A stretch of DNA of 64,000 nt from positions 224,001-288,000 of the forward strand of contig CAVSDR010000003.1 in assembly GCA_963726745.1 (NCBI GenBank), given 5' to 3'. A program made the translations under genes and the position numbers. Below the pieces are notes generated by a model. The model searched no databases. It saw nothing but the letters and a program-made list of their open reading frames with translations, and was not told the DNA's origin. Below, one piece after another: positions 16,322-59,062 of the stretch. This DNA is from an uncultured Verrucomicrobiae bacterium (GTDB lineage: Bacteria > Verrucomicrobiota > Verrucomicrobiia > Chthoniobacterales > UBA10450). Positions within the stretch are counted from its first letter, which is position 1. Each line of letters begins with the position of its first letter.

Positions 16322-16347
16322 ACTACCCCTTACTTACCCCCAAAAGT

Positions 16348-41727: not shown

Positions 41728-42899
41728 CGCGCCTCCTTCCGCGGGCGAAAAATCGCCGCCCGCCAGTGCCACCGCCGGCGGATGATGCGCGGCGGCTGCG
41801 GGACTTTGCGCGCGCTCTCAGCGAACGCTTTTGCCTCGAAGACGCCAAGGCCATCGAGCGCGCCGTAGCCCGCGAGCGCGGAGTGCAAGTGCGGGTGGCC
41901 TTTGATCCCGCGGCGGTGCAGCACGCGATGAGCTGCGCCTGGTCGCGCGAGGCCGGGCAGCCGGCGCACTTCACCTTTCCCCGCTTCCAACCGGGGCATC
42001 TCCTCGAGACCGTGATCTATCGCTGGCTCGCGTTGCTGGAGCTTTTTCTCTCTCGCGAGCTGTCGACGGAGGTTCGCGGCCGGGTCGTGATCAACTTCAA
42101 CGACGCCGGGATCGAACCCGGCCTGGCCTTCTCCGGGAACCGCCCGGAATACCGGCTGATTCCTGATCCCGATTTCTTCACCACGCGCGGCTACGCGCAG
42201 GCGCGGGATCACTTTGCGCGTGCGCCAGTAGCCTGGCGCGACCGCAGCCCGGCAGTTTTTTGGCGCGGGAGTTCGCTCGGCCGGAAGGAGCACACGGCGC
42301 TCGAGATGCCGCGCGCGCGCCTTTGCCAAGTGGCCCGCGACGCGAGCGCGGCGGAATTCGATGTCGGCCTCAGCGAGGTCGTGGATGTCAGTGCCACAGA
42401 GGCAGCGCAGCTTCGCTCCGCGGGCTTGGTCAAGGATCGGGTCTCGTGGAAACGGCTCGCGCAATTTCGTTATCACATCGACATCGACGGCAACGCCAAC
42501 AGCTTCGCCGGCTTGTTCCGCAAGCTCTTGTCCGGCGGCGTGGTTTTCAAAGTCGCCTCGCCGGACTGCTACGCGCAGTGGTATTACCATCGGCTCAAAC
42601 CCTGGGAAAATTTCGTCCCGGTCCGGTCCGACTTAGGCGATTTGCTGGAAGCGATCGCGCGCTGCCGCGAGCAGGACAAACTCGCGCAACAGATCGCGCA
42701 GAATGGCCGCGCGCTGGCGCTGGCCCTTCGCTTCGAAACCGAATTCGCCGGCGCCGTGGCGACGGTGCGGGAAGCTTTCGCCGCCAGCCGGCCGACGGTT
42801 AAACGCTGGCTTCGGACAGCTCGCGCTTCGGCCCGGGATTGGGCGCATTTGTCAGCGGGCTGCGCCACGTTTCCAGCGGCAACAAGCCAATGCCCATGA
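41715..42899 (+). CDS. Glycosyltransferase family 90 (CAP10/POGLUT-like); ends uncertain
   Basis: 'FWRG', 'Y.IDIDGN.NS', 'QWYY..LKPW..FVPV..DL.DL', 'QIA.NG'; overlaps the 3' end of ccsA by ~100 nt. Confidence 0.75.
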   Translation: MSLLTRLLPRAKNRRPPVPPPADDARRLRDFARALSERFCLEDAKAIERAVARERGVQVRVAFDPAAVQHAMSCAWSREAGQPAHFTFPRFQPGHLLETVIYRWLALLELFLSRELSTEVRGRVVINFNDAGIEPGLAFSGNRPEYRLIPDPDFFTTRGYAQARDHFARAPVAWRDRSPAVFWRGSSLGRKEHTALEMPRARLCQVARDASAAEFDVGLSEVVDVSATEAAQLRSAGLVKDRVSWKRLAQFRYHIDIDGNANSFAGLFRKLLSGGVVFKVASPDCYAQWYYHRLKPWENFVPVRSDLGDLLEAIARCREQDKLAQQIAQNGRALALALRFETEFAGAVATVREAFAASRPTVKRWLRTARASARDWAHLSAGCATFPAATSQCP

Positions 42900-44650
42900 G
42901 CAGCACCTGGCTGAGGCAGAAACCGATCAGCCACGGGAAGGCGCTGTCCATGAAGCCGTAGGAATGCAGGCCGATGCCGAGCATGTTGACGCCAAACCAG
43001 GACCACGCGGTCACGACGTTGCCAAAAACAGCCAGCACCATCAGGCCGCGCTGTTTCACCAATCCGCCCCAGCGCGCGTGCAGGATGATTGCGTTCCAGA
43101 GCACGATCAGGAGCGCGCCGTTTTCCTTCGGGTCCCAGCCCCAAAAACGGCCCCACGATTGATCCGCCCAAATGCCGCCGAGGATCGTCCCGACAAAGCT
43201 GAAGAGCGTCGCGAAACAAACGATCCCGTAGACCATGCGCGCGAGGGATTGCGCGGTGGCGCGATCAAGCGAGGAGGTGAGCGCGCCGCGCACGATGTAG
43301 GTCAACGCCAGAAAGCCGGCCAGGAAAGTGGAAGCGTAGCCGAGAGTCACGCAGACCACGTGAGTCGCGAGCCAGCCATTGGTGTCGAGGACCGCGCGCA
43401 TCATCTCCATGGTGTCGCCGTCCATCGAGAGATGGTGCGCGATCAGGAGGGTGACGAAGCCGAGCATGGCCGCGGTGGCGCTGCCGATGCCGTTGCGGAA
43501 AAAGCGCTCGAGAAAGATGCCGAGGAAGACGCAGCCCCAACCGATGAAAACGGCGCTGGAATAAAGATTCGTCACCGGCGGCCGGCCTTCCAGATACATC
43601 CGGGTCAGCAGGCCTAACGAGTGCGCCACGAAGGTAACAACCAGCAAGATGTAGGCGTAGCGCCCGAGCGCTTCCGGCCGCGTGAGCCAGGAAGCGGCCG
43701 CAAGGATGAAGATGAGAACGTAGAGCACCATCGCGCCGTAGAACGGCTGCAGCTGGTTGAAGACGCTTTCGACGTTCGCCTTCCGGACGCGCCCCGGAAA
43801 ATGCTTCTGCAGCCAGGCGCTGTAATCGCTGACCGTGCGGTTAAACGTCGCCGCGTCTTTCGCCTGGAAAGCGCTCGCCATGGTCGCGTAGGCCGTGACT
43901 GCGGGATGGAGATTTCCCTCGGAGAGGAAGGCCACGATGCTGTCGCCTATTTTCCGCCATTGCAGCGGATCGTCGGCCGGTGGCACTGGCGGAATCGGGA
44001 AAAAATAACCGGTTTCCGCGAGGAAGGCGAAGCTCTGCAGCGCCTCGGTCGAGATGCCGCTCTGCATCGGGACTGGCGACGGCTTGACCGTGCGCGTGAG
44101 CTCCTCGATCTGCGCCGCGAAGTCGTCCGTGCCGGAAACTTGCAGGCTGTTTTTCAGCCGATGGTAAAGCGTCAGGCGATCGAACAAGCTTGATGATGTC
44201 GCGCTGGAACGGCGAGCGCACCTGCGTCTCCACTTTTTGCGCGAGCGCGGCCTGCTGCGCGATCTCCTGCGCATGCGGGAAGAGCTCGCGGAAGCTGTAA
44301 TCCTTCCCGCGATCCGGGGACCAGCCGAGCGCCGAGAGCGTGTCGCCATTCCGGATCACGAAGACCTTCCGCAGGTCGGCCTCGCCCGGCTGGAACATCA
44401 GCTCCGTGAGCCAGGCGATCGGGGTGAGCGTTTCCCCTTCGCCGCGCACGGTCTGCTTTCCGTGGATAATAAGCAGCGAGTTCCGCGCGACGGTGTCGAT
44501 CGGCTTGATCCGCCCGTTCAAGAGCACCGGCAGGCGGCCAAATTTCTCCAGGTCGAAGCCGTTGCGCGTCTTCGTCTCGAAGAGCGGCGAAAGCAGGTAA
44601 ACGATCGCGCCAAGCACGAGCCCCCACGAAATGAGACGTCGAGTTCTCAT
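42799..44650 (-). CDS. ccsA: Cytochrome c biogenesis System II heme-handling protein (CcsA/ResC type), frameshift near 44190
   Basis: WWD motif 'WADQSWGRFWGWDPKEN'; 'RPPVTNLY', 'WLATHV', 'GLHSYG'; N-terminal 'GRIKPIDT.AR'. Confidence 0.9.
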
Positions 44651-45814
44651 CGAGCGCGTTTCCTCACGAAGCCGAAAAGATGCATGGAAAATTGCACCGT
44701 GAGCCCGAGCGCCACCAGTCCGCAGGCAAGGTAAGGGATGAGCATCGCGGGATTGCGCACCACCTGGAGGATGGTGGTCTTGTCGTTATTATCGAAGCCG
44801 GCCTGGTAAAAGGTGAAGCCGCGATAGCGCAGCGGATCATTCATCGAGATCAAGACCTCGCGGTTCTCGTTCCGCTCGGGATCGAGCAGGCGGACGCGGC
44901 TGGAGAAATTTTTCGGGATATCGGTTCCGGCGTAACGGTCGTGCTTAAAGTCGAGCAAGGTGAGCCCGAAGTTTTTCGGGAAACGGCGCTGCCGCATGAT
45001 CAGCTCGAAGGTGCGCTCGCCGACGGTGAAGGCCTGCGCGTCCGGGATGGCGTTCGAGACCAGCCACGTGCCTAACGAGCCCTGCACCCCGCTCACTTCC
45101 ACGTAGGCCGCGGTCAGGTCGCGCTCGTCGTCTTTGACTGTGCGCGGGATTTCTGTGATCGCGACGTTGACCCCGAAACCGGTGGTCGCAAGGGAAGGCG
45201 GCGCGGCCGGTTCCTGCGCGCGCATGGCCACGCGCGCGTTCGGAATGAAGCGCCGGATGTTGAGCGTGAAGGGCAACGCCGGATGCTGGATCGTGCCGCC
45301 ACGCGCGAGCAGCTCGCTCCGGAATCGCTACCACCTGGTCAAAGTCCGGGTTGGTCACATCGATGACTGCGAGCTCGGTTTCGCGCGGCGCTTCCGAGTA
45401 AGCCAGCGTCTGGCCTTCATCCATCCGCATCTGAGTTTCGCGCGCGAAGAGGCCGGTGAGCAGCTGGCCCACGAGCAGAAGGATCACGCCGAGGTGCAGC
45501 AGGATGATGCCGATCTTTTTCTTCGTGAGCTGGAACCGCGTCAGGTGCGCCGCGAGCAAATTAGCCAGCAAGACGGTGCCGAGCAGATAGCCGCCGGGAA
45601 GCACCGGAATCTTCCAGGTGGCGCCGTCCGGTCCCCACCAGACCAAAAGGCTCTGGAAGTAATGCGCCTGGACCGCGTGAATCCCCAGCCGCACTTGCGC
45701 GAGCGTGCCCAGAAAAACCAGGAGCATGCCGATCCCCAGGCAGACGACCGTGAGGCGCAGCGAGGCCAGCGCGCGCCAGGGCGAGCGTTCGAAGCGGACG
45801 GTTTCGCTGCTCAT
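44647..45814 (-). CDS. Cytochrome c biogenesis ResB/CcsB-like protein, frameshift near 45310
   Basis: 'LASLRLTV..L......GTLAQ', 'HLGVILLL', 'PKNFSS.V', 'ISMNDPLRYRGFTFYQ'. Confidence 0.85.
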
Positions 45815-45818
45815 TTTC

Positions 45819-46880
45819 TCAGGGAATCTTCAGGCTGCGCAGGAAGTCGGCAAAGGCGCTTTTCTGCGAGAGCACGGTGGCGTCGTCGCCGGTCATCTTG
45901 ATGAACCAGGCATGATCCTTTTCGTCGAGAATGGCGGCGAGGATGCGTTGCTTCTCCGGGCTCTCGCCGACCGGCCCGGTGCTCACGAGGTCGACCAGGT
46001 GAAAGTCGTGCCCGTTCACTTCGAGATGCTCGATCGTCGGCGCGAGCGCCGCTTCATCGACCGGCGGGAGATTGAGCTGGCCGCGCCAGCGATTGACGTT
46101 CGCCAGTTCGCCGCCAGCCGCGCCGCCTAACGAGACCACGGAAACGTCGGCTGTTTTTCCATCCGGCCCGGTGGCGTTGAAGCTGGCCAGGCGCATCGGC
46201 GTGAGCGGTTTCACCGCCCAATTAGACGGCAGGATGTATTGCACCGCGCCTTCCTCGGTCGGCGCAGTGGACGGCGACGCGGGCGCGTTCGTACTCGCGC
46301 CGGCACCGGCGGGGGCGTGCGCGGAATGGTCGTGCTCGGCCACGTGGATCGACCCGAGGAATTGCTCAAAAGCCGCGCGCTGCGCCTGCACGAGCGCGTC
46401 CGGCCCGGTCATCTTAAAGAACCAGGTCTCGCCCTCGACCGGAAGGATGCCGCCGAGGATGCGCTGGCCTTCATTCGCGAGATCGACCAGGAAAAGCTCA
46501 CGACCATTGACCGGCAGCGGCTTCCCGGCCTCGGCCTCGCTCGCGATCGGCGCAAGCTTCAATTGATTGCGCCAGCGGTTCACGTTCGCGAGCAGGCCGC
46601 CCGCTTCCGCCGGAAAGGAAATCACCGAGACGTCGGCTGCCTGGCCGTCGGCGCCGCGCACCGAAAAGCTGCCTTTGCGGAAGCCGCTGGCGGGTTGTTC
46701 CTCCCAGCCTTCCGGCGCGGTCCAATGCACCACCGCCGCATGTCCCTGCTCCGGTGCGGCGGCCGGCGCGCGCGTTTCCTTGGGCGCGCGGTAGACGGTG
46801 ATCTTGTCGTCTCCAGCATCGCAGGCGGCGAGCGCGAGCGCGGCGAAAGAGAAGACAGCGGTGGGCAAAAACGGCTTCAC
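45819..46880 (-). CDS. Lipoprotein with two repeated domains, co-oriented with the ccs genes
   Basis: Lipobox 'LAAC'; two copies of 'P..W...P....R..SF...GG.LANVNRWR.QL.L...WF.KMTG.D..V..Q..AF..FL.S'. Confidence 0.8.
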   Translation of the reverse strand: MKPFLPTAVFSFAALALAACDAGDDKITVYRAPKETRAPAAAPEQGHAAVVHWTAPEGWEEQPASGFRKGSFSVRGADGQAADVSVISFPAEAGGLLANVNRWRNQLKLAPIASEAEAGKPLPVNGRELFLVDLANEGQRILGGILPVEGETWFFKMTGPDALVQAQRAAFEQFLGSIHVAEHDHSAHAPAGAGASTNAPASPSTAPTEEGAVQYILPSNWAVKPLTPMRLASFNATGPDGKTADVSVVSLGGAAGGELANVNRWRGQLNLPPVDEAALAPTIEHLEVNGHDFHLVDLVSTGPVGESPEKQRILAAILDEKDHAWFIKMTGDDATVLSQKSAFADFLRSLKIP

Positions 46881-46917
46881 AGGAGAGGTGAAACTACCCG
46901 TGCGACCGAAGTCGCTG

Positions 46918-48168
46918 TCAAGCGTCCAGGACCAGATCGCTCTTGGGCGCGCCGATGCAGGTGAGGCGCGTGCCCGGCTCGGTCTCGAAGTCGGATCGCT
47001 CGATGTAATCGACCGTGCCGGAGAACACGGCCACCTGGCAGGTGCCGCAGCTGCCGGCACGGCAACCGCTGGGGATGTTGATTCCGTGCGCCTCGGCCAG
47101 GTCGAGGATGCTGGTGTGTTCGCCGCACCACTTGAGGGTTTGCCCGCTTTTCTTGAATTGCACGGCAAAGCCGGTCGCCTCTCGCGCCTCGGGCGAGATA
47201 ACCGCGGCGACTTTCTTCACGCTCGAGGGACCAAAGGTCTCGTAGTGGATGTGCTTCTCCGGCACACCCCAGGCCTCGAGCCCGGCGGTGACGTCCTGCA
47301 TCATCGGTCCCGGCCCACAGAGGTAGAACTCGAAATTATTCGACGGCAGGAGCTGGCGGAAGAGATCGACGGAAATGCGGCCGTGCACGTGGTAATCGCG
47401 CCCCAGTTCGTAGTCTGTTTCCGGGCGGCTCGCGCAGACGTGCAGGTGCACGTTCGGATGCTCGCGCGCGATCCTCTCGAGGTCCTCTTTCATGATGTGT
47501 TCCGCGCGCCCGCGGACCCCGTAAAAGAACCAAATCTCGCGCCGCGAACTCTTCGCGACGAGCTCGTGAAGCATGCTGAGCATGGGCGTGACGCCGATGC
47601 CGCTGCCGATAAGCACGACCCCGCTGCTCGCGGCCGGGTCGAGGTAAAACTGCCCCGAGGGCGCCTTCACATCGAGGATGTCGCCCTCGTGCAATTGCTC
47701 GTGGAAAAAGCTCGAGACCAAGCCCGGCGGCCCGGCGGGATCGCGCGGCGGGATGCGCTTGATCGTGACGCGATAGTGCTCGCGCCGCGGACAATCGGAG
47801 AGGCTGTAGCAGCGGACGACCTGTTTTCCCTGGCCGGGAATGGTCAGGCCGAAGGTGAGATATTGGCCGGGGAGAAAATCTGGCAGCGGCTTCTGATCGT
47901 GCGGCGCGAGATAGAAGGAGCAGATGTCCGCGCATTCCTGCACTTTTTTGGCGACAAGAAATTTGCGCCAACCGTTCCAGGAAGCACCGGCCGCCGCGCG
48001 TTGCCCTCGGAGGTCGCGCAACATCTGCAGCTCCGTCTCGAGCAGTTGCAAACGGAGATCGGCCTGCCGTTTTTGCCCGGCGAGCCGGCGGAGATTGGCC
48101 GAGGTGACCAGCCCGATCTGGAGCAACCCGCCGCCTACGAGCACGCCGCCGAGCAATTCCGTGATCAT
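46918..48168 (-). CDS. FAD/NAD(P)H-binding oxidoreductase with C-terminal [2Fe-2S] ferredoxin (FNR/PaaE/Hcr-like) and N-terminal hydrophobic segment
   Basis: 'RCYSL', 'GLVSSFFH', 'GSGIGVTP', 'YLCGP', 'CRAGSCGTC...C'. Confidence 0.9.
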   Translation of the reverse strand: MITELLGGVLVGGGLLQIGLVTSANLRRLAGQKRQADLRLQLLETELQMLRDLRGQRAAAGASWNGWRKFLVAKKVQECADICSFYLAPHDQKPLPDFLPGQYLTFGLTIPGQGKQVVRCYSLSDCPRREHYRVTIKRIPPRDPAGPPGLVSSFFHEQLHEGDILDVKAPSGQFYLDPAASSGVVLIGSGIGVTPMLSMLHELVAKSSRREIWFFYGVRGRAEHIMKEDLERIAREHPNVHLHVCASRPETDYELGRDYHVHGRISVDLFRQLLPSNNFEFYLCGPGPMMQDVTAGLEAWGVPEKHIHYETFGPSSVKKVAAVISPEAREATGFAVQFKKSGQTLKWCGEHTSILDLAEAHGINIPSGCRAGSCGTCQVAVFSGTVDYIERSDFETEPGTRLTCIGAPKSDLVLDA

Positions 48169-48171
48169 CCC

Positions 48172-49872: not shown

Positions 49873-52000
49873 GCTGCGCGTCCGCGACCGCGGGCGGCTT
49901 GGGCGGCGAGCGGAATTGTTCGATCGATTCCGGGAGGAAAGGCTTGAGCGGGCGGGCCAGGATTTCGCGCTCGGTCGGCTTGAAGCTGGCCGTCAACGGG
50001 CCTGGAGGAAGGACAATGGTGCGGTTCCAGAGCGTTTGGGAGCGCTCGACAACCGCGTTGGCAATCGCTTTCGGCGACATGTTGTAATCGAAACCGAGCT
50101 CTGCGATGTCGCCGATTAAATTGACCGGCACCATCTGCGTGATGAATTTCAGATTCACCTTGTAGGGGGTTTCGCCGGTGAGGCTGGCGCCGGCGACCTT
50201 ATAGGACGCCCAGCGAAAACCTCCGGGCGGCAGGACGATGCTTTGCTTGCGCGCGCCATTTGGTCGGGCCAGAAGCGCGTCGGCATTCGTCGCCGGGCGC
50301 ACATAAGGCAACGGGTCGACGCTTTTGTTCGTCGGCAGAATCTGCACGCGCTCGCCGCCGCGAATCAGCGTGACCAGAAACTTCGACTGCAAGCTGAAGA
50401 GATATTTGTCCAGCGGCAGCTTGCGATCGTGCACGTAGCTCGACTCCTCGTCGCGGTAATCGCCATTGGGATCGCGATCGCCAGAAACAAACAGCACCCT
50501 GCCGCGACGGTCCGAGACCGTGACCTGGAGGAAATTCGCGCGCTCCGCATCGAAGCCGGTGGGCGCGCCGTGGCCGTCGGTGCCGTTCGCGACCTTGACC
50601 CGGAAACGCAGGCCGCGCGCATCGTTTTGCTCGACCACGAAGTCGTGCAACTGGAAGCCGCGCCGCAGGATTTGGTAGCGCTGCAAATTCGCTTCTTCGA
50701 GCTTGGCAAACTGATCATCGAGAATGGCCCGGGCGTCGTAGCGATCGTCGATCGATTGCCAGCGCGGGGGGAACTTTGTATCGGTAGGCGCTTTCTTTTC
50801 GAAGGCGTCCGTGCCCCATCCGGCGCGGTAATCGAACTGCAGCCACTCCCGCATGGTCGCGAGCTGCTGCGCCTTTACGTTGAAGGGGAAAAGGCCTGGA
50901 TGAATGATCGAGTAATCCGGGCCCGCGAAACGGTGATCGGTTAACTTGCGAGCAGGCGTTGGCTTTTCGCCCACGACCGCAGCGGGTCCGAAGGCGTAAC
51001 CGGACTTGATCCCGGGCACATTCCCCATGTGGCAGTCCTGGCAGGTTTCGCCGCGCTTGTTCGCTGGCGAATTCTTGAATTGCGAGAAGGCTTCCTCGAG
51101 GCGGAAACCGTTGAGCAGATTCACATCGTGGCAGGACCCGCAGAAGCCGGATTTCTCGAGCGGATCGAATTTGATCACGTTTGTGTGGATGGCGCGGCCG
51201 ACTTCGCCGCGCTTGGTCACCACCTGGAATTGATCGGGCTGCGCGAGCACACCCTTGAGAATGCGATTGCCCTTCGGTCCGTAGACCGGCTCGAGCAGGT
51301 CGCCTTCCTGGATCGCGGTGCGGCCGCTGACCTTGCCATAGTCATTCTTTACCCGGTGGCAGACGATGCAACTGATGCCTTCCCGCGAGGTCGGGTTGCG
51401 GTCCATGTTGCTGGCAAAAATCGGTTCCTCGATCTGCATTCCCACCTGCGTGTGGCAGCGAATGCAGAAGTCGCCGTTCGTGCCCGAGGTGCGTTTCGCA
51501 ATCGTCGCCTGCATGGTGTTGAAGATCGGGCTGAGCTGCGCGTAGGCGTGCTGCGAGACGGACCATTGGCGGAATTGCGTGGGATGGCAGGTGGCGCAGG
51601 TCGAGGCCGAGGGGAACTTGTTTTCCACGAGTAATTGCGCGTGCGCCGCGGCGGCATTCGTGGTGCCTGCGCCGGTGCGGGCAATCGCGCCCGCGGGCGG
51701 CGGGGTCGCATTCGGCACAAGCAGGAGATCGTCCGGCATCCCGACCGGGGCGTCGTTCCCGCCGGGCAACAAGAGATCGTCATCGGAGGAAGCGGCGGCC
51801 CCGCTCTTGGCCGCCGGCGCCGGAGCCAGGAGATCATCGGCATCTGCGGTCGCCGCCGGAGTCGGCGTGGGCGCGGGTGGAGGCGTCGCCAAATTTGGCA
51901 CCGCGATTTCCGGTTCCTGACCCCGGAGCATGGGCTGTCCAGCCCCAACCAGAAGCACCAGCAGGAACACCGCAGCGAAAGAACTGCGCCGCGCTTTCAT
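49856..52000 (-). CDS. Periplasmic pentaheme c-type cytochrome (c554-like N-domain, large C-terminal domain)
   Basis: Signal peptide; CATCH, CIRCH, CIVCH, CGSCH, CQDCH; 'QWSVSQHA'. Confidence 0.9.
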   Translation of the reverse strand: MKARRSSFAAVFLLVLLVGAGQPMLRGQEPEIAVPNLATPPPAPTPTPAATADADDLLAPAPAAKSGAAASSDDDLLLPGGNDAPVGMPDDLLLVPNATPPPAGAIARTGAGTTNAAAAHAQLLVENKFPSASTCATCHPTQFRQWSVSQHAYAQLSPIFNTMQATIAKRTSGTNGDFCIRCHTQVGMQIEEPIFASNMDRNPTSREGISCIVCHRVKNDYGKVSGRTAIQEGDLLEPVYGPKGNRILKGVLAQPDQFQVVTKRGEVGRAIHTNVIKFDPLEKSGFCGSCHDVNLLNGFRLEEAFSQFKNSPANKRGETCQDCHMGNVPGIKSGYAFGPAAVVGEKPTPARKLTDHRFAGPDYSIIHPGLFPFNVKAQQLATMREWLQFDYRAGWGTDAFEKKAPTDTKFPPRWQSIDDRYDARAILDDQFAKLEEANLQRYQILRRGFQLHDFVVEQNDARGLRFRVKVANGTDGHGAPTGFDAERANFLQVTVSDRRGRVLFVSGDRDPNGDYRDEESSYVHDRKLPLDKYLFSLQSKFLVTLIRGGERVQILPTNKSVDPLPYVRPATNADALLARPNGARKQSIVLPPGGFRWASYKVAGASLTGETPYKVNLKFITQMVPVNLIGDIAELGFDYNMSPKAIANAVVERSQTLWNRTIVLPPGPLTASFKPTEREILARPLKPFLPESIEQFRSPPKPPAVADAQRVGSN

Positions 52001-52145
52001 TTCTCCGAGGCTGCTCCTTTTCGCGGCTGACCGTCAATGCGAAAGGATGCGTGATAATGCTTGCCTCCGCGGAGCGGGCTTGTTCATCCTCAAAAGGTCA
52101 TCGGCGACAAAACAGGCCGGTCGCTGAATCCCAGGGAGATCTTCT

Positions 52146-53141
52146 ATGAATAAGCATCGTCATTGCTTGTGGTTGTCCTTGATTCTCGGAGCGCTGCTTC
52201 CCTTGCCCGCGCACGCCGGCCAGGTGCACGCACTCGACCCGGCCAAGGTCGTAGGCGCACAGAAATGTGGCGAATGCCACAAGTATGAGGCCGAAGCCTG
52301 GAAGACGACGCCGCATTTTAAGACCTTCGACGAGATGCACCGCAGCCCGGCGGGGCAAAAAATCGCCACCGCCCTCGGCATCCGCCGGATCAAATCCGAA
52401 AGCCTTTGCCTCACGTGTCATTACACCATGCAGCAAAAAGGCGGCGAAGCGGAGCCGATCTCCGGCGTCTCCTGCGAGTCCTGCCACGGCGCGGCGCAGG
52501 ATTGGTTGAACGTGCACAACGACAAGAAGCTCTCGCGCGAAGAGCGGCGCACGAAATCCGCCGCCGCCGGCATGATCCGGCCAGACGACATCTATGCTGT
52601 CGCGGCCAACTGCTACCAGTGCCACCTCGTGCCTAACGAGAAGTTGGTCAACGTGGGCGGGCATCCCGCCGGGAGCAAGGATTTCGAGCTCGTCGCCTGG
52701 TCGCAGGGAATGGTGCGGCACAACTTCCTCACGCCCGAGGGCGAAGAGGGCAAAGTGAACAAGGAAGACGACCTGAAGCGCCGCCGCCTGCTCTTCGCTG
52801 CCGGCACCATCCTTGACCTGGAATACAGCCTGCGCGGCGTGGCCAGCGCGACGGAAAAAGCGACCTACGGCATCACCATGGCACAACGCGCCGCAGCTTT
52901 GCGCAAGAAGCTCGAGGAAATCCAAAAGGTCGCGCCCACCGACGAAATGGCCGCGATCATCGCCGCAGCAAATGCCGCCGCCTTGAAGTTAAACAACCAG
53001 GCGCCGCTCGAGGAAACCGCCAACAAAGTGGCGGAACTGGGGAAGAAATTCACGACGTCGGTCGATGGCGACAAGCTGGCCGGGCTCGATCCGATGCTGC
53101 CGAAAGCCGAGCAATATCGCGGCAAGCCCTATCAGCCCTAG
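52146..53141 (+). CDS. Periplasmic tetraheme c-type cytochrome (c554-like)
   Basis: Signal peptide; CGECH, CLTCH, CESCH, CYQCH; 'W..TPH'. Confidence 0.9.
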   Translation: MNKHRHCLWLSLILGALLPLPAHAGQVHALDPAKVVGAQKCGECHKYEAEAWKTTPHFKTFDEMHRSPAGQKIATALGIRRIKSESLCLTCHYTMQQKGGEAEPISGVSCESCHGAAQDWLNVHNDKKLSREERRTKSAAAGMIRPDDIYAVAANCYQCHLVPNEKLVNVGGHPAGSKDFELVAWSQGMVRHNFLTPEGEEGKVNKEDDLKRRRLLFAAGTILDLEYSLRGVASATEKATYGITMAQRAAALRKKLEEIQKVAPTDEMAAIIAAANAAALKLNNQAPLEETANKVAELGKKFTTSVDGDKLAGLDPMLPKAEQYRGKPYQP

Positions 53142-53195
53142 ACCGCGTCGCGCATGATTGCCGGAATGCGCCGCCCGCCGATCTAGCCCTCGGCC

Positions 53196-54920
53196 ATGGC
53201 TGAACTGACCTCTCGCATGTCCCGGCCGCAGCGCTGGGATGTGCCCTTCGGCGCGCAGATGTCGGAGGCCGAGGTGGATCGGCTCTTGAGCGTCGCGCCC
53301 TTCGCCCAAGTCGATCCCACGCGCTTCCCCGAGAGCATTCCGTTACGCGGCATTCTCCTGAACGACGCGCGCGTCTGCCGCTTCCAGCGCGGCGAAATCG
53401 TGGTGCGCGAAGGCGATTACGGCAGTTCCGCCTTCTTCATCCTCGAGGGCGCGGTGCGCGTGCTCCTCGACTCGCTCCCGGCGCAGATGCTCGGCCGGCG
53501 GAGCCCGGAGAAGAAAGGCTTTCTCCGCTCGTTGGCGCAGCTTTGGTCCCGGCCGGCTTATCCGGAGATGCGCGATTACCACGCCGGCCACCTCGCGGAA
53601 GGCGCTTTGCAGAAACAAGCCCGCGAAGGCGAGCCGGTGCCCATTTTCCTGCAGGATGTGCCGGGCGTGCTCGATTCCAGCCACACCGCGCGCCTCGGCG
53701 CGGGCGAACTCTTTGGTGAAATCGCGGCTATCTCGCGCACCCCGCGCACGGCCACGGTGATCGCCGAGGAGCCGGCCGAGTTGCTCGAGATTCGCTGGCA
53801 AGGCCTGCGCGAGATCCGCCGCTATGCCCCGGAGTGGAAACAGCAGATTGACCAGCGCTATCGCGAACGCAGTCTGCAGACGCACCTGGGCGAGACGCCT
53901 CTGCTGCGCGATTTGTCGGAGACGGATCTCGCGACCGTCGCCGCGCAGACACACTTCGAGAGCTACGGCGATTTCGAGTGGAACTCGTCCTATCGCACCG
54001 TGCGCGAGGGCACCCCGCAGGAACGGCTGGCGCGTGAGCCGGTGATCGCGCGCGAGGGCGATTACCCGAATGGGCTCATCCTGATCCGCAGCGGATTCGC
54101 TCGTCTCAGCCGGAGATACAATCACGGCGAGCGCACCATCAGTTACCTTGGGAAGGGCGATGTCTACGGGCTGGGCGCGCTCCTGCACAATGCCCGTTTC
54201 CAAGACACCATCGGGCTGCAGTTTTCCCTGCGCGCGGTCGGCTACGTGGACATCCTCGTTATTCCCGCGCCCATCGTGGAGCGCTTCATCGCGCCACGCT
54301 TCACCGATGCGGAAATCGCCGCGCTGCTCGCCGGAATTAGTCAGCAGACTGAGATCAGCGTCGCCCAGGATGCCGAAGCCCGGTTCGGCCCGGAGATGAT
54401 CGAGTTCCTGGTCGAGGAACGCTACATCAACGGCACCGCCACCATGCTCATCGACCTCGATCGCTGCACGCGCTGCGACGACTGCGTGCGCGCCTGCGCC
54501 GCGAGCCATGACAACAATCCGCGCTTCATCCGGCACGGGCGCACCCAGAACGGCATCATGGTGGCTCACGCCTGCATGCACTGCGTCGATCCCGTCTGCA
54601 TGATCGGCTGCCCCACCGGCGCGATCCACCGCGAGTCGCTTCAAGGCGAGGTGGTGATCAACGACCTGACCTGCATCGGCTGCGCCACCTGCGCGAACAG
54701 TTGCCCCTACGACAACATCCAGATGGTCCACGTGCGCGATGCCGCCGGCGTTTTCCTGGTGGATGAAGGGACGCGCACGCCCATCCTCAAGGCCACGAAG
54801 TGCGACCTGTGCGTCGATCAACTCGGCGGCCCCGCCTGCGTGCGCGCCTGCCCGCACGATGCCCTGGTGCGCGCGGACATGCAGCAGGTGGACCATCTCG
54901 CGAAGTGGTTGAACCGGTGA
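53196..54920 (+). CDS. Two cyclic-nucleotide-binding domains fused to a four-cluster [4Fe-4S] domain (DmsB/NrfC-like)
   Basis: 'IVVREGD...F.ILEG.V', 'FGEIAAISRTPRTATV'; second degenerate cNMP domain; CTRCDDCVRAC, CMHCVDPVCMIGCP, CIGCATCANSCP, CDLC..ACVRACP. Confidence 0.9.
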   Translation: MAELTSRMSRPQRWDVPFGAQMSEAEVDRLLSVAPFAQVDPTRFPESIPLRGILLNDARVCRFQRGEIVVREGDYGSSAFFILEGAVRVLLDSLPAQMLGRRSPEKKGFLRSLAQLWSRPAYPEMRDYHAGHLAEGALQKQAREGEPVPIFLQDVPGVLDSSHTARLGAGELFGEIAAISRTPRTATVIAEEPAELLEIRWQGLREIRRYAPEWKQQIDQRYRERSLQTHLGETPLLRDLSETDLATVAAQTHFESYGDFEWNSSYRTVREGTPQERLAREPVIAREGDYPNGLILIRSGFARLSRRYNHGERTISYLGKGDVYGLGALLHNARFQDTIGLQFSLRAVGYVDILVIPAPIVERFIAPRFTDAEIAALLAGISQQTEISVAQDAEARFGPEMIEFLVEERYINGTATMLIDLDRCTRCDDCVRACAASHDNNPRFIRHGRTQNGIMVAHACMHCVDPVCMIGCPTGAIHRESLQGEVVINDLTCIGCATCANSCPYDNIQMVHVRDAAGVFLVDEGTRTPILKATKCDLCVDQLGGPACVRACPHDALVRADMQQVDHLAKWLNR

Positions 54921-55738
54921 GCCCGCTCCTCCTTCGGCGCCTCGTAGCCAGCAGCTTGCTGGTTATTTTTTGCGTCGCCACCTGGCTGCTCTGGGAAATA
55001 GCCCGGGCCGCGCTCCGTCCCACGGCCATCTACACGGGCGTGCTTCTGCTTGCGCTCGTGCTTGCGCTCACGCTTTTCAACGCCCGCAAAAAGCTTCCCT
55101 TTCTGCCCCTGGCCCGGGCCGCCACCTGGCTCCAGGTGCACATCTATCTCGGCTGGTTCTGCCTCTTCCTTTTCTTTCTCCACCTCCACTTCCGCATTCC
55201 ACAGGGAGCGCTCGAGATCGTGCTCGCGCTCGTCTTCCTCGCGGTCATCTTCAGCGGCGTCTTTGGCCTCGTCCTTAGCCGCAAGCTTCCCGGGCGCATG
55301 GCGCGCTCGGGCGAACCGCTGCTCTACGAGCGCATCCCCGCGTTCCGCCGGCGAATCCAGGACGAGGTCGAGCAATTGGTCCGCTGCGCCGAGCGCGAGA
55401 CCGAGTCCTCCACCCTGGCCGACTTTTACGTGCAATACCTGCGCCGCTTCTTCGTGCGCGTGCCGCACGCCTGGCGCGCGCTCGCCCCGGCAACCCACGG
55501 TCTCCATCCGCTCCTGGCCGAGCTCGACGCGCTCGACCGCTACCTCAACGAGCGCGAAAAAGCCATCGCCCGGGAGCTGCGCGATTGGATCGAAACCAAG
55601 CAAAACCTCGACTTCCAATACGCCAGCCAGCGCCTGCTCAAGCTCTGGCTCTTCGTGCACATTCCGCTGACTTACAGCCTGATTCTCCTTGGGCTGGCAC
55701 ATGGCCTGATCGCGGCGCTCTACGCCTGGAGGTGGTAA
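54917..55738 (+). CDS. Integral membrane protein, putative b-type heme binder
   Basis: GTGA overlap with upstream stop; ~5 TM helices; His in 'WLQVHIYLG', 'HLHFR', 'WLFVHIPL', 'LAHG'. Confidence 0.8.
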   Translation: MSPLLLRRLVASSLLVIFCVATWLLWEIARAALRPTAIYTGVLLLALVLALTLFNARKKLPFLPLARAATWLQVHIYLGWFCLFLFFLHLHFRIPQGALEIVLALVFLAVIFSGVFGLVLSRKLPGRMARSGEPLLYERIPAFRRRIQDEVEQLVRCAERETESSTLADFYVQYLRRFFVRVPHAWRALAPATHGLHPLLAELDALDRYLNEREKAIARELRDWIETKQNLDFQYASQRLLKLWLFVHIPLTYSLILLGLAHGLIAALYAWRW

Positions 55739-55741
55739 AAG

Positions 55742-57991
55742 ATGCAGCGCCCCCTCGATCCTCTCGGCTTCCGGGAAAACCGTTACGAGCGTCCGAATCA
55801 GGATTGGGTTTGCGGCCGGACAGACGAGCAACACCCCTGTCCGCTCGGGCCCGATGCGCGAGGAAATTGCCGGGCCACCGGCGAATGTCTTCCCGCGAAA
55901 CGCGGCGATCGCTGGAGTTGCACCCGCAGCGAGGCCGCCGGTGGGAAGTGCACCGAGGGGCCGCTGCCGGATGGCGCCTGCGCGCACCCCATTCTCCCCT
56001 GCCAGCCCACGCGCTCGCTCCGCCGCTCGCGCGCCCTTGCCGTCTGGCTGGTGGTCGTGCTCACTGGCGGCTTGCTGCTGATTTTCCTGGGGGTCGCGAT
56101 GCGGCGGCCCGTGATCGATGCCGGCACGCTGACTAATGCGCACGCCACCTCTGCGAGCACCTGCCGCGATTGCCACAGCCTCGACCAGACGAATCTCGGC
56201 GCGGCGCTCCTCTCGGGCTCGTTAGGCCAGCGCGCCCTGCGGGACAGCGCCCTTTGCCTCAAGTGTCACGAAGAAGGCGCGCAGCCGCTCAACCCCCACG
56301 GACTCCCGCCCGCCGCCCTGGCCCACATCCGCGCGGAGCAAAGCCCGTCGGCTAAAACTTCCGCGCCGCTTGCCTTGCGCGTGAGCCGGCAGTTCGCGGC
56401 CCACGGCGGCGACGCGGGAGCACTCGCCTGCGCGCTCTGCCATCAGGAGCACCATGGGCGAAATTTCAATCTCGCGCAGATGAGCAATGCCCAATGCCAG
56501 ACCTGCCACGCGGTGCAGTTTGCCAGCTTCGGCCAGGGACATCCGGAATTTGCCGGCTATCCCGCCCAGCGGCGGACCCGCATCTTTTTCGATCACCAAA
56601 GTCACCTGCGAGAGCACTTCCCTGCGACCCGGAGCGGCGCGCCGCAAGGCTGCCAGGATTGTCACACGCCCGGACCTGCGGGCCGCTTCATGCAGGTGAA
56701 AAGCTTCGAGAAAACCTGTGCCAGTTGTCACGCCGCCCAGATCCGCGGCGAGGGCATGACCACGAAAGGCGTGGCCTTTTTTGCCGTGCCAGGAATTGAC
56801 GCCGAAACGCTCGCCGCTCGCGGCCACAGCGTAGGCGAATGGCCGAGGCTGGCCGATGCGCGGCTGACGCCCTTCATGGAATTGCTCCTGTCGCGGCAGC
56901 CGGCGGCACGCGCGGCCCTGGAGCAACTGCGCGGCGTGGACCTGCTCGATCTGCGCACGGCGACGCCGGAACAACTCGCGGCCGCGGAGAGTTATGCCTG
57001 GGAAGTAAAGCGCCTGCTCTTCCACCTGGTGACCGAGGGCCAAAGCTACCTGCTCGCACAGATGGCGCAGGAAGTCTCGCCGATCGGCCTGGAGCTGCCG
57101 CGCGCGACGATTCTCGCCGCGCAAAAGGAGTGGATGCCAAACCTGCTGACCGAGATGGCTGCGTATGAAAAAGGCGTCAAACCCACGCTTGCGCCCACGC
57201 CTGCGCCGTCGCTCACGTCCACTCCGAGCCTGTCGGCTAAAACGGCGCCGCCGGCAGGAGACGGTGATCTGCTTGCGAGCGATGATCTAAGCGCAGCTGC
57301 GGCCACGCCGACGCCCGCACCGGCCGACGATGACCTCACAGGTGGCGACCTCTTGAGCGCATCGCCTGTGGCGGAAGCGACCCCGGCCCCATCGGCCACG
57401 CCTGCACCCGCGATCCCGGCGGAGGAATGGGTCGCCGCCGGCGGTTGGTATCGGCCGCAGGAAAGTTTTACCCTGTATTACCGGCCGGCCGGCCATGCCG
57501 ACCCGTTTCTCGTCGCCTGGCTCGAGGCCGCGCAGCGCTCCACGGTCGACCCGCACATTTTCGATCGCATGGCCGACCGCCAGGCGCCCGGACTCTGCCT
57601 CAAATGTCATACGATCGACCAAACCGCTCCCGGCCAGGTGCAAGTCAACTGGACCTCGGCCCAGCCGGACGGAAAGAGCCATCCCTTCACCACCTTCAGT
57701 CACACAAAACACTTCAGTCTCGTGGGCGACGCCGGCTGCCAGACCTGTCACAAGCTCGACCCGCAATCGACGTATCCGAAGTTCTTCGCAGAAGACGAGG
57801 CCGGCGCGCCGCGGCGCGATCCGCAGAAATTCCAAAGCAACTTCGCGCCCATGCCCAAGCTATTGTGCGCGGAGTGCCATCAGCCGCGCGTCGCAGGCGA
57901 CAACTGCACGCTCTGCCATCGCTACCATGCCGCTCCGGACCGGGCGGGCGAACTCGCCGAAATCGGCCGGTTTCGGCCCGCGCAAAAATAG
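55742..57991 (+). CDS. Membrane-anchored decaheme c-type cytochrome with Cys-rich N-terminal domain
   Basis: 10 CXXCH (CRDCH, CLKCH, CALCH, CQTCH, CQDCH, CASCH, CLKCH, CQTCH, CAECH, CTLCH); 8-Cys N-terminus followed by a TM helix. Confidence 0.9.
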   Translation: MQRPLDPLGFRENRYERPNQDWVCGRTDEQHPCPLGPDARGNCRATGECLPAKRGDRWSCTRSEAAGGKCTEGPLPDGACAHPILPCQPTRSLRRSRALAVWLVVVLTGGLLLIFLGVAMRRPVIDAGTLTNAHATSASTCRDCHSLDQTNLGAALLSGSLGQRALRDSALCLKCHEEGAQPLNPHGLPPAALAHIRAEQSPSAKTSAPLALRVSRQFAAHGGDAGALACALCHQEHHGRNFNLAQMSNAQCQTCHAVQFASFGQGHPEFAGYPAQRRTRIFFDHQSHLREHFPATRSGAPQGCQDCHTPGPAGRFMQVKSFEKTCASCHAAQIRGEGMTTKGVAFFAVPGIDAETLAARGHSVGEWPRLADARLTPFMELLLSRQPAARAALEQLRGVDLLDLRTATPEQLAAAESYAWEVKRLLFHLVTEGQSYLLAQMAQEVSPIGLELPRATILAAQKEWMPNLLTEMAAYEKGVKPTLAPTPAPSLTSTPSLSAKTAPPAGDGDLLASDDLSAAAATPTPAPADDDLTGGDLLSASPVAEATPAPSATPAPAIPAEEWVAAGGWYRPQESFTLYYRPAGHADPFLVAWLEAAQRSTVDPHIFDRMADRQAPGLCLKCHTIDQTAPGQVQVNWTSAQPDGKSHPFTTFSHTKHFSLVGDAGCQTCHKLDPQSTYPKFFAEDEAGAPRRDPQKFQSNFAPMPKLLCAECHQPRVAGDNCTLCHRYHAAPDRAGELAEIGRFRPAQK

Positions 57992-57997
57992 CCGGCC

Positions 57998-59062
57998 TTA
58001 TTTCGCCGAGGCCGGTGCGATCCGAAAAACCTGATAAGGCGTGGTGCGCATGCTTTGGCCATTATTGAACCGCGGCATGTGCTCGATCTGCGACGCGGTC
58101 ACGTAGAGAGAGCCGTCCGGTCCCCATGCGAGCGAGTCCGGCCAGTTCAGGCGTTCGTCCTGCACCACCCGCTCGATCTCGCCGCTCGCTGGACGAAAGC
58201 GCGAGATCCCATTTCCTTCGAGATCGGTCAGGTAGATCGCGCCGTCGGGACCTTCAAGCATGCCGTCGGGCGGCGCGGTTTGCCCGAGCTTCTCCACCTT
58301 GGCCGCGAGTGCTTCGGGCGAAAGTTTGTCATCGATCAAGGCCGCCGTCGGAATGCGATAAAGCGTGCGTCCGGTGAGCGCGTGGTAATAGAGGAAGCCA
58401 CCAGCCGCATCGAGCGCGATGCCATCAGAGTGGATCAGCGGCGTCTTGCCTTCAGGCGTAAGCACCTTCCGGCCTTGCACGGTGAGAGTGACGTCTGTTT
58501 CCGCCTGGGTGGACGGATGGCCCGCGAGCACACGGCGCGCGTTCCCGGTTTTCAAATCCACCACCACGAGCGCGCCCAGACCGGAATCGGTCAGAAACGC
58601 GACGTTCGCTTTCGTGTCCACACGCACATCGTTCAAATAGCTCTTCGCCGGCGCGACCTCACCCAGCGGAATGATGCGGATCGACTTGTTCGTCTGCAGA
58701 TCGATCTCGACCAGCTTCGGGCCATCGGCGACTACGCCGGCCATTTTCGGCGAGGCCGGATCGAGCACCCAGAGCCGATCGAGCGCATCCACGTAGACGC
58801 TTTGCACGCAGACGAAGTGGGTCGAGGCCGGGCCCTCGGCATTCCAGGTCTCGTTAGGGAAGGGCCGCGGCTGGCCGTCCACGATCTCCGCGACCGAGAT
58901 CGTGTGCGTGTCGGACCATTGCGGGAAGTTCACAAAAATGCGGCCGCTCTGCGAAACGGCCACGCCGGTCACCTGCAGCTCCGGGAAGCTCGCGACTTCG
59001 CGCAGATCCCCGGCGGAAAAGGTGGCCGCGACCGCCAGGAGAATTGGGAAGCTCATGCTCAT
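57998..59062 (-). CDS. Major royal jelly/yellow-like (L-dopachrome tautomerase-related) beta-propeller protein
   Basis: 'TGVAVS..GRIFVNFP', 'VQSV.VD..DRLWVLD', 'SYLNDVRVD', 'SDGIAL', 'WPDS'. Confidence 0.88.
   Translation of the reverse strand: MSMSFPILLAVAATFSAGDLREVASFPELQVTGVAVSQSGRIFVNFPQWSDTHTISVAEIVDGQPRPFPNETWNAEGPASTHFVCVQSVYVDALDRLWVLDPASPKMAGVVADGPKLVEIDLQTNKSIRIIPLGEVAPAKSYLNDVRVDTKANVAFLTDSGLGALVVVDLKTGNARRVLAGHPSTQAETDVTLTVQGRKVLTPEGKTPLIHSDGIALDAAGGFLYYHALTGRTLYRIPTAALIDDKLSPEALAAKVEKLGQTAPPDGMLEGPDGAIYLTDLEGNGISRFRPASGEIERVVQDERLNWPDSLAWGPDGSLYVTASQIEHMPRFNNGQSMRTTPYQVFRIAPASAK

Follow-up and report, generated by a model that had tools for sequence, protein, structure and literature searches.

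A locus of ten genes in the window analysed here, which is a stretch of 64,000 nucleotides from an uncultured Verrucomicrobiae bacterium (contig CAVSDR010000003.1 of assembly GCA_963726745.1, positions 224,001 to 288,000 of the forward strand), is almost certainly a Verrucomicrobiota (Chthoniobacterales-type) copy of the multihaem cytochrome cluster described both as ptdABCDEFG and as PCC4 subgroup II. With moderate confidence, we propose that this cluster would mediate a quinone-independent, NAD(P)H-driven export of electrons from the cytoplasm, possibly gated by cyclic nucleotide monophosphates (cNMP), in which the pentahaem cytochrome PtdA would cap the outer-membrane barrel PtdB. The source genome comprises 3.41 Mb in 7 contigs and is 94.7% complete.

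The ten genes lie in two arms that run in opposite directions from a 145-bp spacer (52001-52145; Table 1), and the locus carries 19 CXXCH sites, of which PtdA holds five, PtdD four and PtdG ten. This layout had been given by a first-pass annotation made from the letters of the window, and the list of open reading frames (ORFs), their translations, and Pfam and NCBIfam scans agree with it. Genes within the arms follow one another closely: the ptdA-ptdB overlap is 17 nt and the ptdE-ptdF overlap 16 nt, and the stop codon of the ResB gene overlaps the start codon of the CcsA gene in an ATGA. The same scans matched no molybdopterin, nitrite-reductase or oxidase catalytic family among the locus proteins, which bears out the annotation's statement that such subunits are lacking.

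The annotation had also stated that the architecture did not match MtrCAB, PioAB, Nrf or Hao and that no functional description of it was known. The second statement has to be revised, as the locus maps gene for gene onto two sets that are described but uncharacterised. The seven-gene set was named ptdABCDEFG in 2023-24 in a preprint according to which its function 'remains completely unknown' (bioRxiv 10.1101/2023.11.21.568154), and the same set was described in 2017 as PCC4 subgroup II, including a five-helix protein with two W-x3-H-x13-H motifs and one S-G-x-x-G motif (PMC5566968). The preprint lists PtdB as a porin, PtdC as an FAD/NAD(P) oxidoreductase, PtdD as a periplasmic tetrahaem cytochrome, PtdG as a decahaem cytochrome, and PtdA as a pentahaem protein that has a beta-rich C-terminal domain and is related to Thermochromatium tepidum cytochrome c552; PtdE is given as a cNMP-binding protein with 4Fe-4S clusters and PtdF as a ferric-reductase-like membrane protein (bioRxiv 10.1101/2023.11.21.568154). 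Both descriptions are purely bioinformatic, with no function tested (PMC5566968; bioRxiv 10.1101/2023.11.21.568154). In the library searched, we found no experimental study of Ptd or PCC4, and the name ptdABCDEFG in that preprint only; the name PCC4, in a related context, turned up in PMC5566968 and once in PMC13264449.

We assign the locus to Ptd/PCC4 because its domain content matches item by item, including the motif signature of PtdF. Present in the window are cytochromes with five, four and ten CXXCH sites, a porin gene adjoining the pentahaem gene, the five-helix protein with its motifs, a pfam13247 and cNMP-binding protein encoded directly upstream of that membrane protein, and the FAD/NAD(P) gene, which lies in the cluster on the other arm. 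Absent is the one-strand order A-B-C-D-E-F-G, since ptdABC is inverted in the window. Gene order varies within the family: 25 loci hold ptdA as well as ptdB, and of these 12 keep that colinear one-strand order, 9 are divergent as in the window and 4 are arranged otherwise; ptdC and ptdE lie on opposite strands in 17 of the 66 loci in which both strands were scored. The inversion was thus not treated as excluding membership.

Table 1. Features of the locus, in order of position in the window (aa, amino acids; TM, transmembrane)
Feature	Positions	Strand	Basis and remarks
Long-form CcsA, System II haem lyase/haem channel	42799..44650	-	two frames, break ~44186; PF01578 85.5 bits
ResB/CcsB-like System II cytochrome c biogenesis gene	44647..45814	-	two frames, break ~45312-45317; PF05140 55.4 bits, C-terminal piece
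Tandem-repeat lipoprotein, 353 aa, two repeats	45819..46880	-	start GTG 46880, lipobox LAAC
ptdC, membrane-anchored NAD(P)H flavoprotein, 416 aa	46918..48168	-	N-terminal TM helix; FAD, NAD and C-terminal plant-type [2Fe-2S] domains
ptdB, outer-membrane beta-barrel, 566 aa	48172..49872	-	predicted structure and Foldseek
ptdA, secreted pentahaem cytochrome c, 714 aa	49856..52000	-	signal peptide, Pro/Ala-rich linker, 5 CXXCH
Divergent intergenic region ptdA-ptdD	52001..52145	no strand	145 bp; blocks CGTCAA..., ...ATGCTTGC recur in Chthoniobacterales-type relatives
ptdD, periplasmic tetrahaem cytochrome, 331 aa	52146..53141	+	signal peptide, c554-like PF13435 62 bits, helical C-terminal half
ptdE, cytoplasmic protein without signal peptide, 574 aa	53196..54920	+	two cNMP-binding domains and DmsB/NrfC-type four-[4Fe-4S] module
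ptdF, inner-membrane protein, 277 aa	54905..55738	+	five predicted TM helices, cytoplasmic helical insert
ptdG, decahaem cytochrome, 749 aa	55742..57991	+	N-terminal 8-Cys domain, TM helix ~residues 98-120, periplasmic domain with 10 CXXCH

The five CXXCH sites of PtdA fall within residues 135-324 and are followed by a haem-free C-terminal domain. Five such sites are found in 26 of 28 homologous PtdA ORFs, and all five are invariant in an alignment of 26 sequences; among the His residues outside the motifs, H151, H272, H356 and H477 are invariant, and H120 and H367 are nearly so. PtdA lacks a lipobox Cys. It is distantly related to the cytochrome c552 of PDB entry 5ze8 (E 3.2e-6), which reproduces for the window the relation reported in the preprint (bioRxiv 10.1101/2023.11.21.568154). 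A paper on cable bacteria groups that cytochrome, Geobacter ExtKL and a cytochrome nanowire of archaea into one pentahaem family (PMC11976967); against the NCBIfam ExtKL model, PtdA scored 27.9 bits, the cut-off being 250.

The annotation's call of the ptdB product as a probable beta-barrel is supported by an AlphaFold model built from an alignment of 27 sequences. The barrel spans approximately residues 181-566, with 18 long strands after two interrupted ones are merged, and the protein ends in ...LLLKF. Model confidence (pLDDT) averages 78.2, being mostly 80-97 in the barrel blocks and low over the N-terminal 140 residues. The best Foldseek matches in the PDB were AlgE (3rbh_C, E 5.2e-11), the Campylobacter major outer-membrane protein (MOMP, 5ldv) and OprD/Occ porins, all of which are 18-strand barrels. 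Relatives of PtdB align only from about residue 120-150 onwards. At the N-terminus of the window protein, residues 1-65 (49680-49872, minus strand) comprise a signal-like helix and a CPNC...CSNC zinc-ribbon motif (pLDDT ~78-86), with a Thr-rich linker after it; the zinc ribbon occurs in the window and close relatives and is lacking in distant PtdB proteins, and Pfam zinc-ribbon matches to it stayed below their cut-offs.

PtdA (residues 120-685) and PtdB (residues 145-566) were modelled together in three runs with separate alignments. The interface score (ipSAE) was 0.89, 0.89 and 0.90, with 274-278 contacts, whereas the best of three controls reached 0.00; the mark reached by the pair is also attained by 116 of 157 solved complexes and by 2 of 215 mismatched pairs. 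Contacts agreed by at least 90% among the three runs, and the partner's pLDDT was at least 88. We know of no solved complex that resembles PtdA-PtdB, so a pass through memorisation seems unlikely. The prediction thus supports, without demonstrating, a binding of the pentahaem cytochrome to the barrel, as the first-pass annotation had suggested. Of the 113 PtdB residues in contact, 21 belong to the N-terminal segment, 25 to periplasmic turns and 55 to the periplasmic half of the strands, compared to 7 in the outer half and 5 in extracellular loops; this puts 101 at the periplasmic face, and every one of the 18 strands takes part. On PtdA, 92 residues make contact, 46 of them in the haem domain and 36 within residues 545-596. 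In the predicted complex, PtdA would cap the periplasmic mouth of PtdB, with its C-terminal segment (545-596) entering the lower lumen; PtdA is placed on the periplasmic side because barrel termini usually face the periplasm. The model contains no haem chain across the outer membrane.

The cytoplasmic and inner-membrane proteins of the cluster carry motifs consistent with an electron path. PtdC matches PF00970 (FAD_binding_6, 36 bits), PF00175 (NAD_binding_1, 71 bits) and PF00111 (Fer2, 47 bits), and among NCBIfam models it scores highest against flavohaemoprotein (Hmp), to whose reductase part it aligns with 266 bits, below the 432-bit cut-off of that family. PtdE matches PF00027 (cNMP_binding, 98 bits) and Fer4_11 (PF13247, 40.9 bits, cut-off 26.2), and its C-terminal 160 residues match the DmsB, HydN, DsrO, HybA and NrfC models, all below their family cut-offs. 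Across 17 sequences, 16 Cys of PtdE fall in four groups, the 12 from C424 through C503 being invariant and C536, C539, C548 and C552 being conserved in at least 90%, which argues for four clusters rather than two. In its first cNMP domain, G170, F173, G174, E175, A177, R181, P183, R184 and T187 are invariant or nearly so in the same 17 sequences, and the F-G-E...R-T-A cassette aligns with the cNMP-binding cassettes of protein kinases G and A (PKG, PKA); in the second domain G321, G325, L345, R346 and A347 are invariant and the cassette is less canonical. Some PtdE relatives of 691-693 aa (P0023, P0028, P0032 and P0036) have an additional FHA domain in their precomputed Pfam lists.

PtdF carries W75-x3-H79-x13-H93 in TM helix 3, S117-G-x-x-G121 in TM helix 4 and W248-x3-H252-x13-H266 in TM helix 5. 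W75, H79, H93, G118, G121, W248, H252 and H266 are invariant in 29 of 29 sequences and S117 is conserved in at least 90%; the structure model (pLDDT 92.8) has a helix pattern that fits the five-helix definition. From these motifs, PtdF is predicted to be a transmembrane electron carrier with two haems b. The annotation had begun this protein at 54800; the GTG at 54905 is most likely the start, giving the length seen in relatives. Against PF01794, PtdF gave no hit at E ≤0.01, and its match to DUF4405 (E 0.003) reached 18.5 bits, the cut-off being 26.7. [quoted passage not shown] A resemblance to the designed two-haem four-helix bundle 7ah0 was rejected, its Z of 8.1 lying in the VIA-align noise range for helical proteins.

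The periplasmic side is represented by PtdD and PtdG. Four CXXCH sites are found in PtdD of the window and in 54 of 69 homologous ORFs, and ten in 66 of 68 homologous PtdG ORFs; PtdG also matches the Pfam families Cytochrome_C7 and Paired_CXXCH. The N-terminal 95 residues of PtdG (55742-56030, plus strand) contain eight Cys, one every ~5-10 residues, each kept in 67-68 of 68 relatives. This 8-Cys domain should be cytoplasmic because basic residues precede the TM helix. Residues 1-125 gave no family match and no usable Atlas match; the domain is a candidate for metal or Fe-S cluster binding and for docking to PtdE or PtdF.

The cluster is widely conserved. A homologue search with PtdE scored 8000 candidates, of which 5355 reached E ≤0.001; the best 120 share 57-100% identity with PtdE of the window (which itself ranks first), and many of them are labelled Chthoniobacterales. 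A pattern scan over one genome per species gave at least 599 matches, at least 575 of which encode a PtdE relative, and the best 80 were taken with up to 10 kb per side. By record title, these 80 loci belong to Verrucomicrobiota (Chthoniobacterales, Opitutaceae, Limisphaerales and others), Planctomycetota, Nitrospinota, Zetaproteobacteria including Mariprofundus, and marine Alphaproteobacteria. ORF blastp at E ≤1e-8 found PtdE in 79 of them, PtdF in 76, PtdD in 69, PtdG in 68, PtdC in 67, PtdA in 28 and PtdB in 27; many of the loci are truncated where a contig ends. Full flanks, taken as at least 7 kb upstream and 5.5 kb downstream, are available for 37 loci, and 33 of these carry the whole of ptdCDEFG. 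The annotation's treatment of the two arms as one unit holds, as all seven genes occur together in 13 of these 37, and 12 loci are colinear. Within the phylum of the window, PtdE is patchy: at E ≤1e-80 it was found in 11 of 401 sampled genomes, the window's own counted, and it had no match in two other sampled genomes of the window's family.

All-against-all clustering of the ORFs of the 80 loci identified one other conserved family of neighbours, with members in 18 loci. Three of three members scanned are class III adenylate/guanylate cyclases (PF00211), and two of the three also have CHASE2. In Pirellulales-type loci the cyclase gene stands upstream of ptdC in divergent orientation; in L035 it follows ptdC directly, and several Verrucomicrobiia loci have it downstream of ptdG. 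Its position beside ptd in three arrangements and two phyla provides independent genomic support for cyclic-nucleotide signalling to PtdE. Judging from its two cNMP domains, PtdE is probably the site through which cyclic AMP or cyclic GMP (cAMP, cGMP) tunes the NAD(P)H-consuming flow. The 18 loci are L025, L030, L035, L040, L041, L045, L046, L047 and L049, together with L051, L052, L059, L061, L064, L067, L069, L071 and L074.

From gene content, conservation, motifs, the barrel fold and the predicted PtdA-PtdB interface, we infer a route of electron transfer with its direction, gating and acceptor. NAD(P)H would reduce the FAD of membrane-anchored PtdC, and single electrons would then move over the [2Fe-2S] cluster of PtdC into cytoplasmic PtdE with its four [4Fe-4S] clusters. 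They would cross the inner membrane via two bis-His haems b in PtdF, and reach the ten haems of membrane-anchored PtdG, then soluble tetrahaem PtdD and, where ptdAB is present, pentahaem PtdA. The topology is in line with this order, as PtdE has no signal peptide, PtdD and PtdA have signal peptides, and basic residues stand before the TM helix of PtdG. We take the flow to be outward because NAD(P)H donates electrons at low potential and because the membrane potential favours their movement out of the cell. At the outer membrane, a small soluble acceptor that reaches the haems through or at the PtdB pore, such as a metal chelate or some other small oxidant, is more likely than a haem chain through the membrane; given the small size of the barrel and the cap geometry, a soluble species is also favoured over a mineral surface. 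The continuous wire drawn by the first-pass annotation therefore stands in part: its cofactor order from NAD(P)H, FAD and [2Fe-2S] through four [4Fe-4S] clusters and haems b to the decahaem fits the motifs, whereas a haem wire through the outer membrane does not agree with the cap geometry.

Several points weigh against this proposal. Its basis, like that of the two earlier papers, is wholly computational; PtdA-PtdB is the only subunit contact that was modelled, and the cap geometry rests on one predicted complex and on the rule for barrel termini. For PtdF, Foldseek against the PDB retrieved nothing at E ≤0.001 (the best match was the McpS sensor domain at E 0.33) and no NOX, FRD or dihaem structure, and VIA-align over 48,161 chains returned generic helical bundles only (best Z 11.1). 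No cyclase lies beside the cluster in the window, the five PF00211 hits of the genome lying elsewhere; the best two of these share 27-33% identity with the ptd-linked cyclases in the catalytic domain only, so no cyclase orthologue is shown in the source genome. ptdAB is missing from most loci, being present in 13 of 37 with full flanks, and in two of five genomes that lack ptdA beside the core no ptdA was found anywhere, which indicates that the outer-membrane step is not essential to the core. The ResB and CcsA genes are frameshifted in the assembly. Finally, the cluster occurs in iron oxidisers, for which inward flow has been proposed (PMC5566968).

Other readings of the locus have to be weighed against outward flow from NAD(P)H to a soluble acceptor. 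The translational coupling of a barrel gene to a multihaem gene through their 17-nt overlap and the confidently predicted PtdA-PtdB interface would also be expected of a wire of the Mtr/Pcc type, that is, a continuous haem chain inside the barrel that reduces insoluble Fe/Mn oxides or humics. The cluster has been likened to porin-cytochrome complexes (PMC5566968; bioRxiv 10.1101/2023.11.21.568154), and PtdA falls in the pentahaem family linked to ExtKL and the archaeal nanowire (PMC11976967), far as its ExtKL score is from the cut-off. We nevertheless consider such a wire unlikely, given that 101 of 113 PtdB contacts are on the periplasmic side and 12 in the outer half or extracellular loops. 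The barrel is AlgE/OprD-like with 18 strands, in contrast to 26 in MtrB; the locus encodes no extracellular or lipoprotein cytochrome, PtdA itself being without a lipobox Cys; and scores were far under the cut-offs for the DmsE/MtrA model TIGR03508 (27.9 against 192.2 bits) and the OmcA/MtrC model TIGR03507 (20.3 against 209.3 bits). Many carriers are, moreover, labelled as aerobic soil or water lineages. The 2017 model reverses the direction, with electrons from Fe(II) or Mn(II) entering via the porin-cytochrome and passing over the multihaem proteins and a b-type cytochrome to the quinone pool; it draws on the occurrence of PCC4 in four marine iron-oxidising Zetaproteobacteria, a Hyphomicrobium from a pyrite-oxidising culture and drinking-water-filter genomes (PMC5566968). 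Contigs of Zetaproteobacteria and Mariprofundus are indeed among our 80 loci (L044, L078), and a haem protein placed at the mouth of a narrow barrel would be well suited to oxidising a dissolved metal ion. What makes inward flow quite unlikely in our view is the core itself: 67 of the 80 loci have ptdC and 33 of the 37 full loci have the entire ptdCDEFG, while quinone reduction needs neither a flavoprotein nor a four-cluster ferredoxin, and the quinone site it would need in PtdF is purely hypothetical. Inward electron flow across the membrane would also run against the membrane potential. Most labelled carriers are Verrucomicrobiota and Planctomycetota, which are not known as metal oxidisers.

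The outer-membrane pair could instead belong to a catalytic system, in which PtdA would be a periplasmic haem enzyme acting on a small N or S oxyanion, NO or hydroxylamine, PtdB its substrate porin and PtdCDEFG the electron supply. The cap-under-pore geometry of the predicted complex fits a soluble substrate, and the preprint reports high transcription of ptdAB in nod-transcribing Alphaproteobacteria of oxygen-deficient zones, carriage by nitrite oxidisers, membership of PtdA in the NrfA COG and a resemblance of PtdC to flavohaemoprotein reductase (bioRxiv 10.1101/2023.11.21.568154), the last of which is confirmed here by the 266 bits of PtdC. All five sites of PtdA are, however, CXXCH and none is CXXCK; the four invariant and two nearly invariant His residues are sufficient for each of the five haems to have bis-His ligation; none of the NrfA, Hao or octahaem models scored above its cut-off; and 5ze8 is a low-potential cytochrome of unknown function according to the title cited in PMC11976967. 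This makes a catalytic PtdA improbable, and we judge no better of two separable modules, in which ptdCDEFG would be an NAD(P)H-to-periplasm shunt serving overflow or feeding an oxidase or peroxidase, and ptdAB an optional addition with a role of its own. Consistent with separable modules, ptdAB is not in the flanks of 24 of 37 full loci, and of the five genomes without ptdA beside the core, three encode it at another site, with a strong match (E ~1e-241), and in the other two it was not found; the 11 of 401 genomes with PtdE likewise describe a patchy accessory trait. Where both modules are present, however, they are usually adjacent (12 colinear, 9 divergent and 4 otherwise of 25), and the order A-B-C-D-E-F-G recurs across phyla.

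If the proposed outward, NAD(P)H-fed reading is true, the cluster would form a bypass of the respiratory chain, possibly under direct cyclic-nucleotide control, through which low-potential electrons would reach the periplasm and the edge of the cell in many bacteria of soil and water; this would matter for the cycling of iron and manganese, for redox balance and possibly for the chemistry of nitrogen oxides. The cluster has a very wide distribution, with PtdE relatives in at least 575 species genomes of Verrucomicrobiota, Planctomycetota, Nitrospinota and Proteobacteria. The window contributes little to this question apart from a soil Verrucomicrobiota example, a lineage-specific link to haem attachment, a predicted geometry of PtdA and PtdB that speaks against a wire simply like Mtr, and a caution on frameshifts.

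The link to haem attachment concerns the three genes downstream of ptdC, which in the Chthoniobacterales-type lineage would supply a paralogous System II haem-attachment set. The annotation had credited the locus with its own maturation machinery; ResB and CcsA do adjoin it, and the linkage is confined to Chthoniobacterales-type loci. Among the 80 loci, tblastn matched the lipoprotein in five (L002-L006) and ResB in three, and CcsA was found at ~80% identity in two, all on Chthoniobacterales-type contigs; in L002 the genes lie downstream of ptdG instead. The lipoprotein was found only beside ResB and CcsA, in loci of this type. It matches no Pfam or NCBIfam family, and its nearest Atlas clusters are Verrucomicrobiota proteins without a name (0.97-0.98), followed by PsbP_2 and DcrB at 0.88-0.89, which is sub-threshold; it possibly has a PsbP/DcrB-like fold, which we note as a lead only. 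CcsA scored 131.8 bits against TIGR03144, below the 187.6-bit cut-off. Two more CcsA-family genes are found elsewhere in the source genome, so the ResB/CcsA set of the locus is a paralogue. An unusual haem motif that would explain a dedicated CcsA paralogue was considered and dropped, all Cys of the haem domains lying in CXXCH.

Both genes called by the annotation are present, each lying in two frames in the window. Intact counterparts exist in L002, where ResB has 390 aa and is 78-80% identical to both window pieces and CcsA has ~615 aa, and alignment to them gives a net +1 for each break. The breaks were compared over 42700-46000 with Logan contigs from four soil-metagenome runs of one study. 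At 44185-44188 in CcsA, four of four covering contigs have one base fewer (X1 two, X2 one, X3 one), and so has the sole covering contig (X1) at 45316 in ResB. The covering contigs also differ from the window elsewhere, by 3-14 letters each, and hence come from close relatives, not certainly from the same strain. Because every covering contig is without the extra base, the two frameshifts are probably assembly indel errors, and the genes should be treated as intact. In another part of the window, putA (proline dehydrogenase/P5C dehydrogenase, 16287-19671, plus strand) is apparently split between two overlapping frames, 16287-18959 holding PutA_N, Pro_dh and Aldedh positions 8-83, and 18493-19671 holding Aldedh positions 117-457; this third apparent frameshift in 64 kb fits assembly indel errors.

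In the divergent spacer, two blocks recur by eye among the window (52030-52075) and five relatives (L001, L002, L004, L005 and L006): CGTCAA, or TTGACG on the other strand, in six of six sequences, and ATGCTTG in five of six, L001 having ATACTTG. From their conservation, they could be promoter or regulator sites. A promoter/terminator scan of 42000-58500 found no sigma-70 consensus promoter in the spacer (one sigma-70-like site lay outside it, no more than the 1.5 expected by chance), and no convincing Fur or CRP box was seen by eye in 52001-52145. Two further genes of the window stand apart from the locus. An ORF of 599 aa (4211-6010, plus strand) encodes a short-chain dehydrogenase fused to a fatty-acid/sphingolipid desaturase domain, and a 922-aa protein (27766-30534, minus strand) has nine DUF5122 beta-propeller repeats and a C-terminal dockerin type I, a dockerin being unusual for the phylum.

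Compared with its closest counterparts, the locus has the same seven-gene content as the ptdABCDEFG set (bioRxiv 10.1101/2023.11.21.568154) and differs in having ptdABC inverted relative to ptdDEFG and in the additional lipoprotein, ResB and CcsA. The Cys residues of PtdE here suffice for four clusters, whereas two are stated in the preprint, whose hosts are Alpha- and Gammaproteobacteria, Nitrospirales and Planctomycetes from saline sites; the string 'Verrucomicrobi' occurs 0 times in its available text, whereas the window is from a soil Verrucomicrobiota. With PCC4 subgroup II, the locus shares the porin, cytochromes with four, five and ten sites, the five-helix protein, the lack of an extracellular cytochrome, the pfam13247 Fe-S gene upstream of the membrane protein, and a redox gene that is upstream of the tetrahaem gene in PCC4 (PMC5566968). 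That paper, however, proposes inward flow from an external donor to quinone, whereas we favour outward flow from NAD(P)H; cNMP domains are not reported in its PCC4 sections, and its taxa are Zeta-, Gamma- and Alphaproteobacteria and Planctomycetes (PMC5566968).

Among characterised systems, MtrCAB, MtoAB and PioAB likewise pair a barrel gene with a periplasmic multihaem cytochrome, here predicted to bind the barrel, and have further multihaem proteins that bridge the periplasm. Different from these, the locus combines an 18-strand barrel with a five-haem rather than a ten-haem partner, which would cap the barrel instead of threading it; the MtrB barrel has about 26 strands. Unlike MtrCAB, it has no MtrC-type surface cytochrome, and electrons would enter through NAD(P)H, Fe-S clusters and haem b rather than through a quinol-oxidising CymA. 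The four-cluster module of PtdE is of the DmsB/NrfC/NarH type, and we propose that it sits on the cytoplasmic face of a five-helix dihaem protein as NarH does on NarI, its five-helix dihaem anchor. In contrast to DmsB, NrfC and NarHI, there is no molybdopterin partner and two cNMP domains are fused in front, and the proposed flow from Fe-S to haem b is the reverse of that in NarHI. NOX/FRD proteins and bacterial Fre-MsrQ share with the locus an FNR-type NAD(P)H flavoprotein that feeds a membrane protein with two H-x13-H pairs; in PtdF these pairs lie on helices three and five and are expected to bind two haems b in a stack, and the flow would likewise be quinone-free and outward. Here, however, the subunits are separate, a [2Fe-2S] and four [4Fe-4S] clusters are interposed, and the output is a decahaem cytochrome instead of O2, Fe(III) or MsrP. 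As a tentative and rather doubtful extension, we put forward that PtdC-E-F-G would be a multi-subunit counterpart of NOX, a quinone-free valve switched directly by cAMP or cGMP bound to PtdE, and PtdA-PtdB a new outer-membrane module with a pentahaem cytochrome as the plug of a small substrate pore at its periplasmic mouth.

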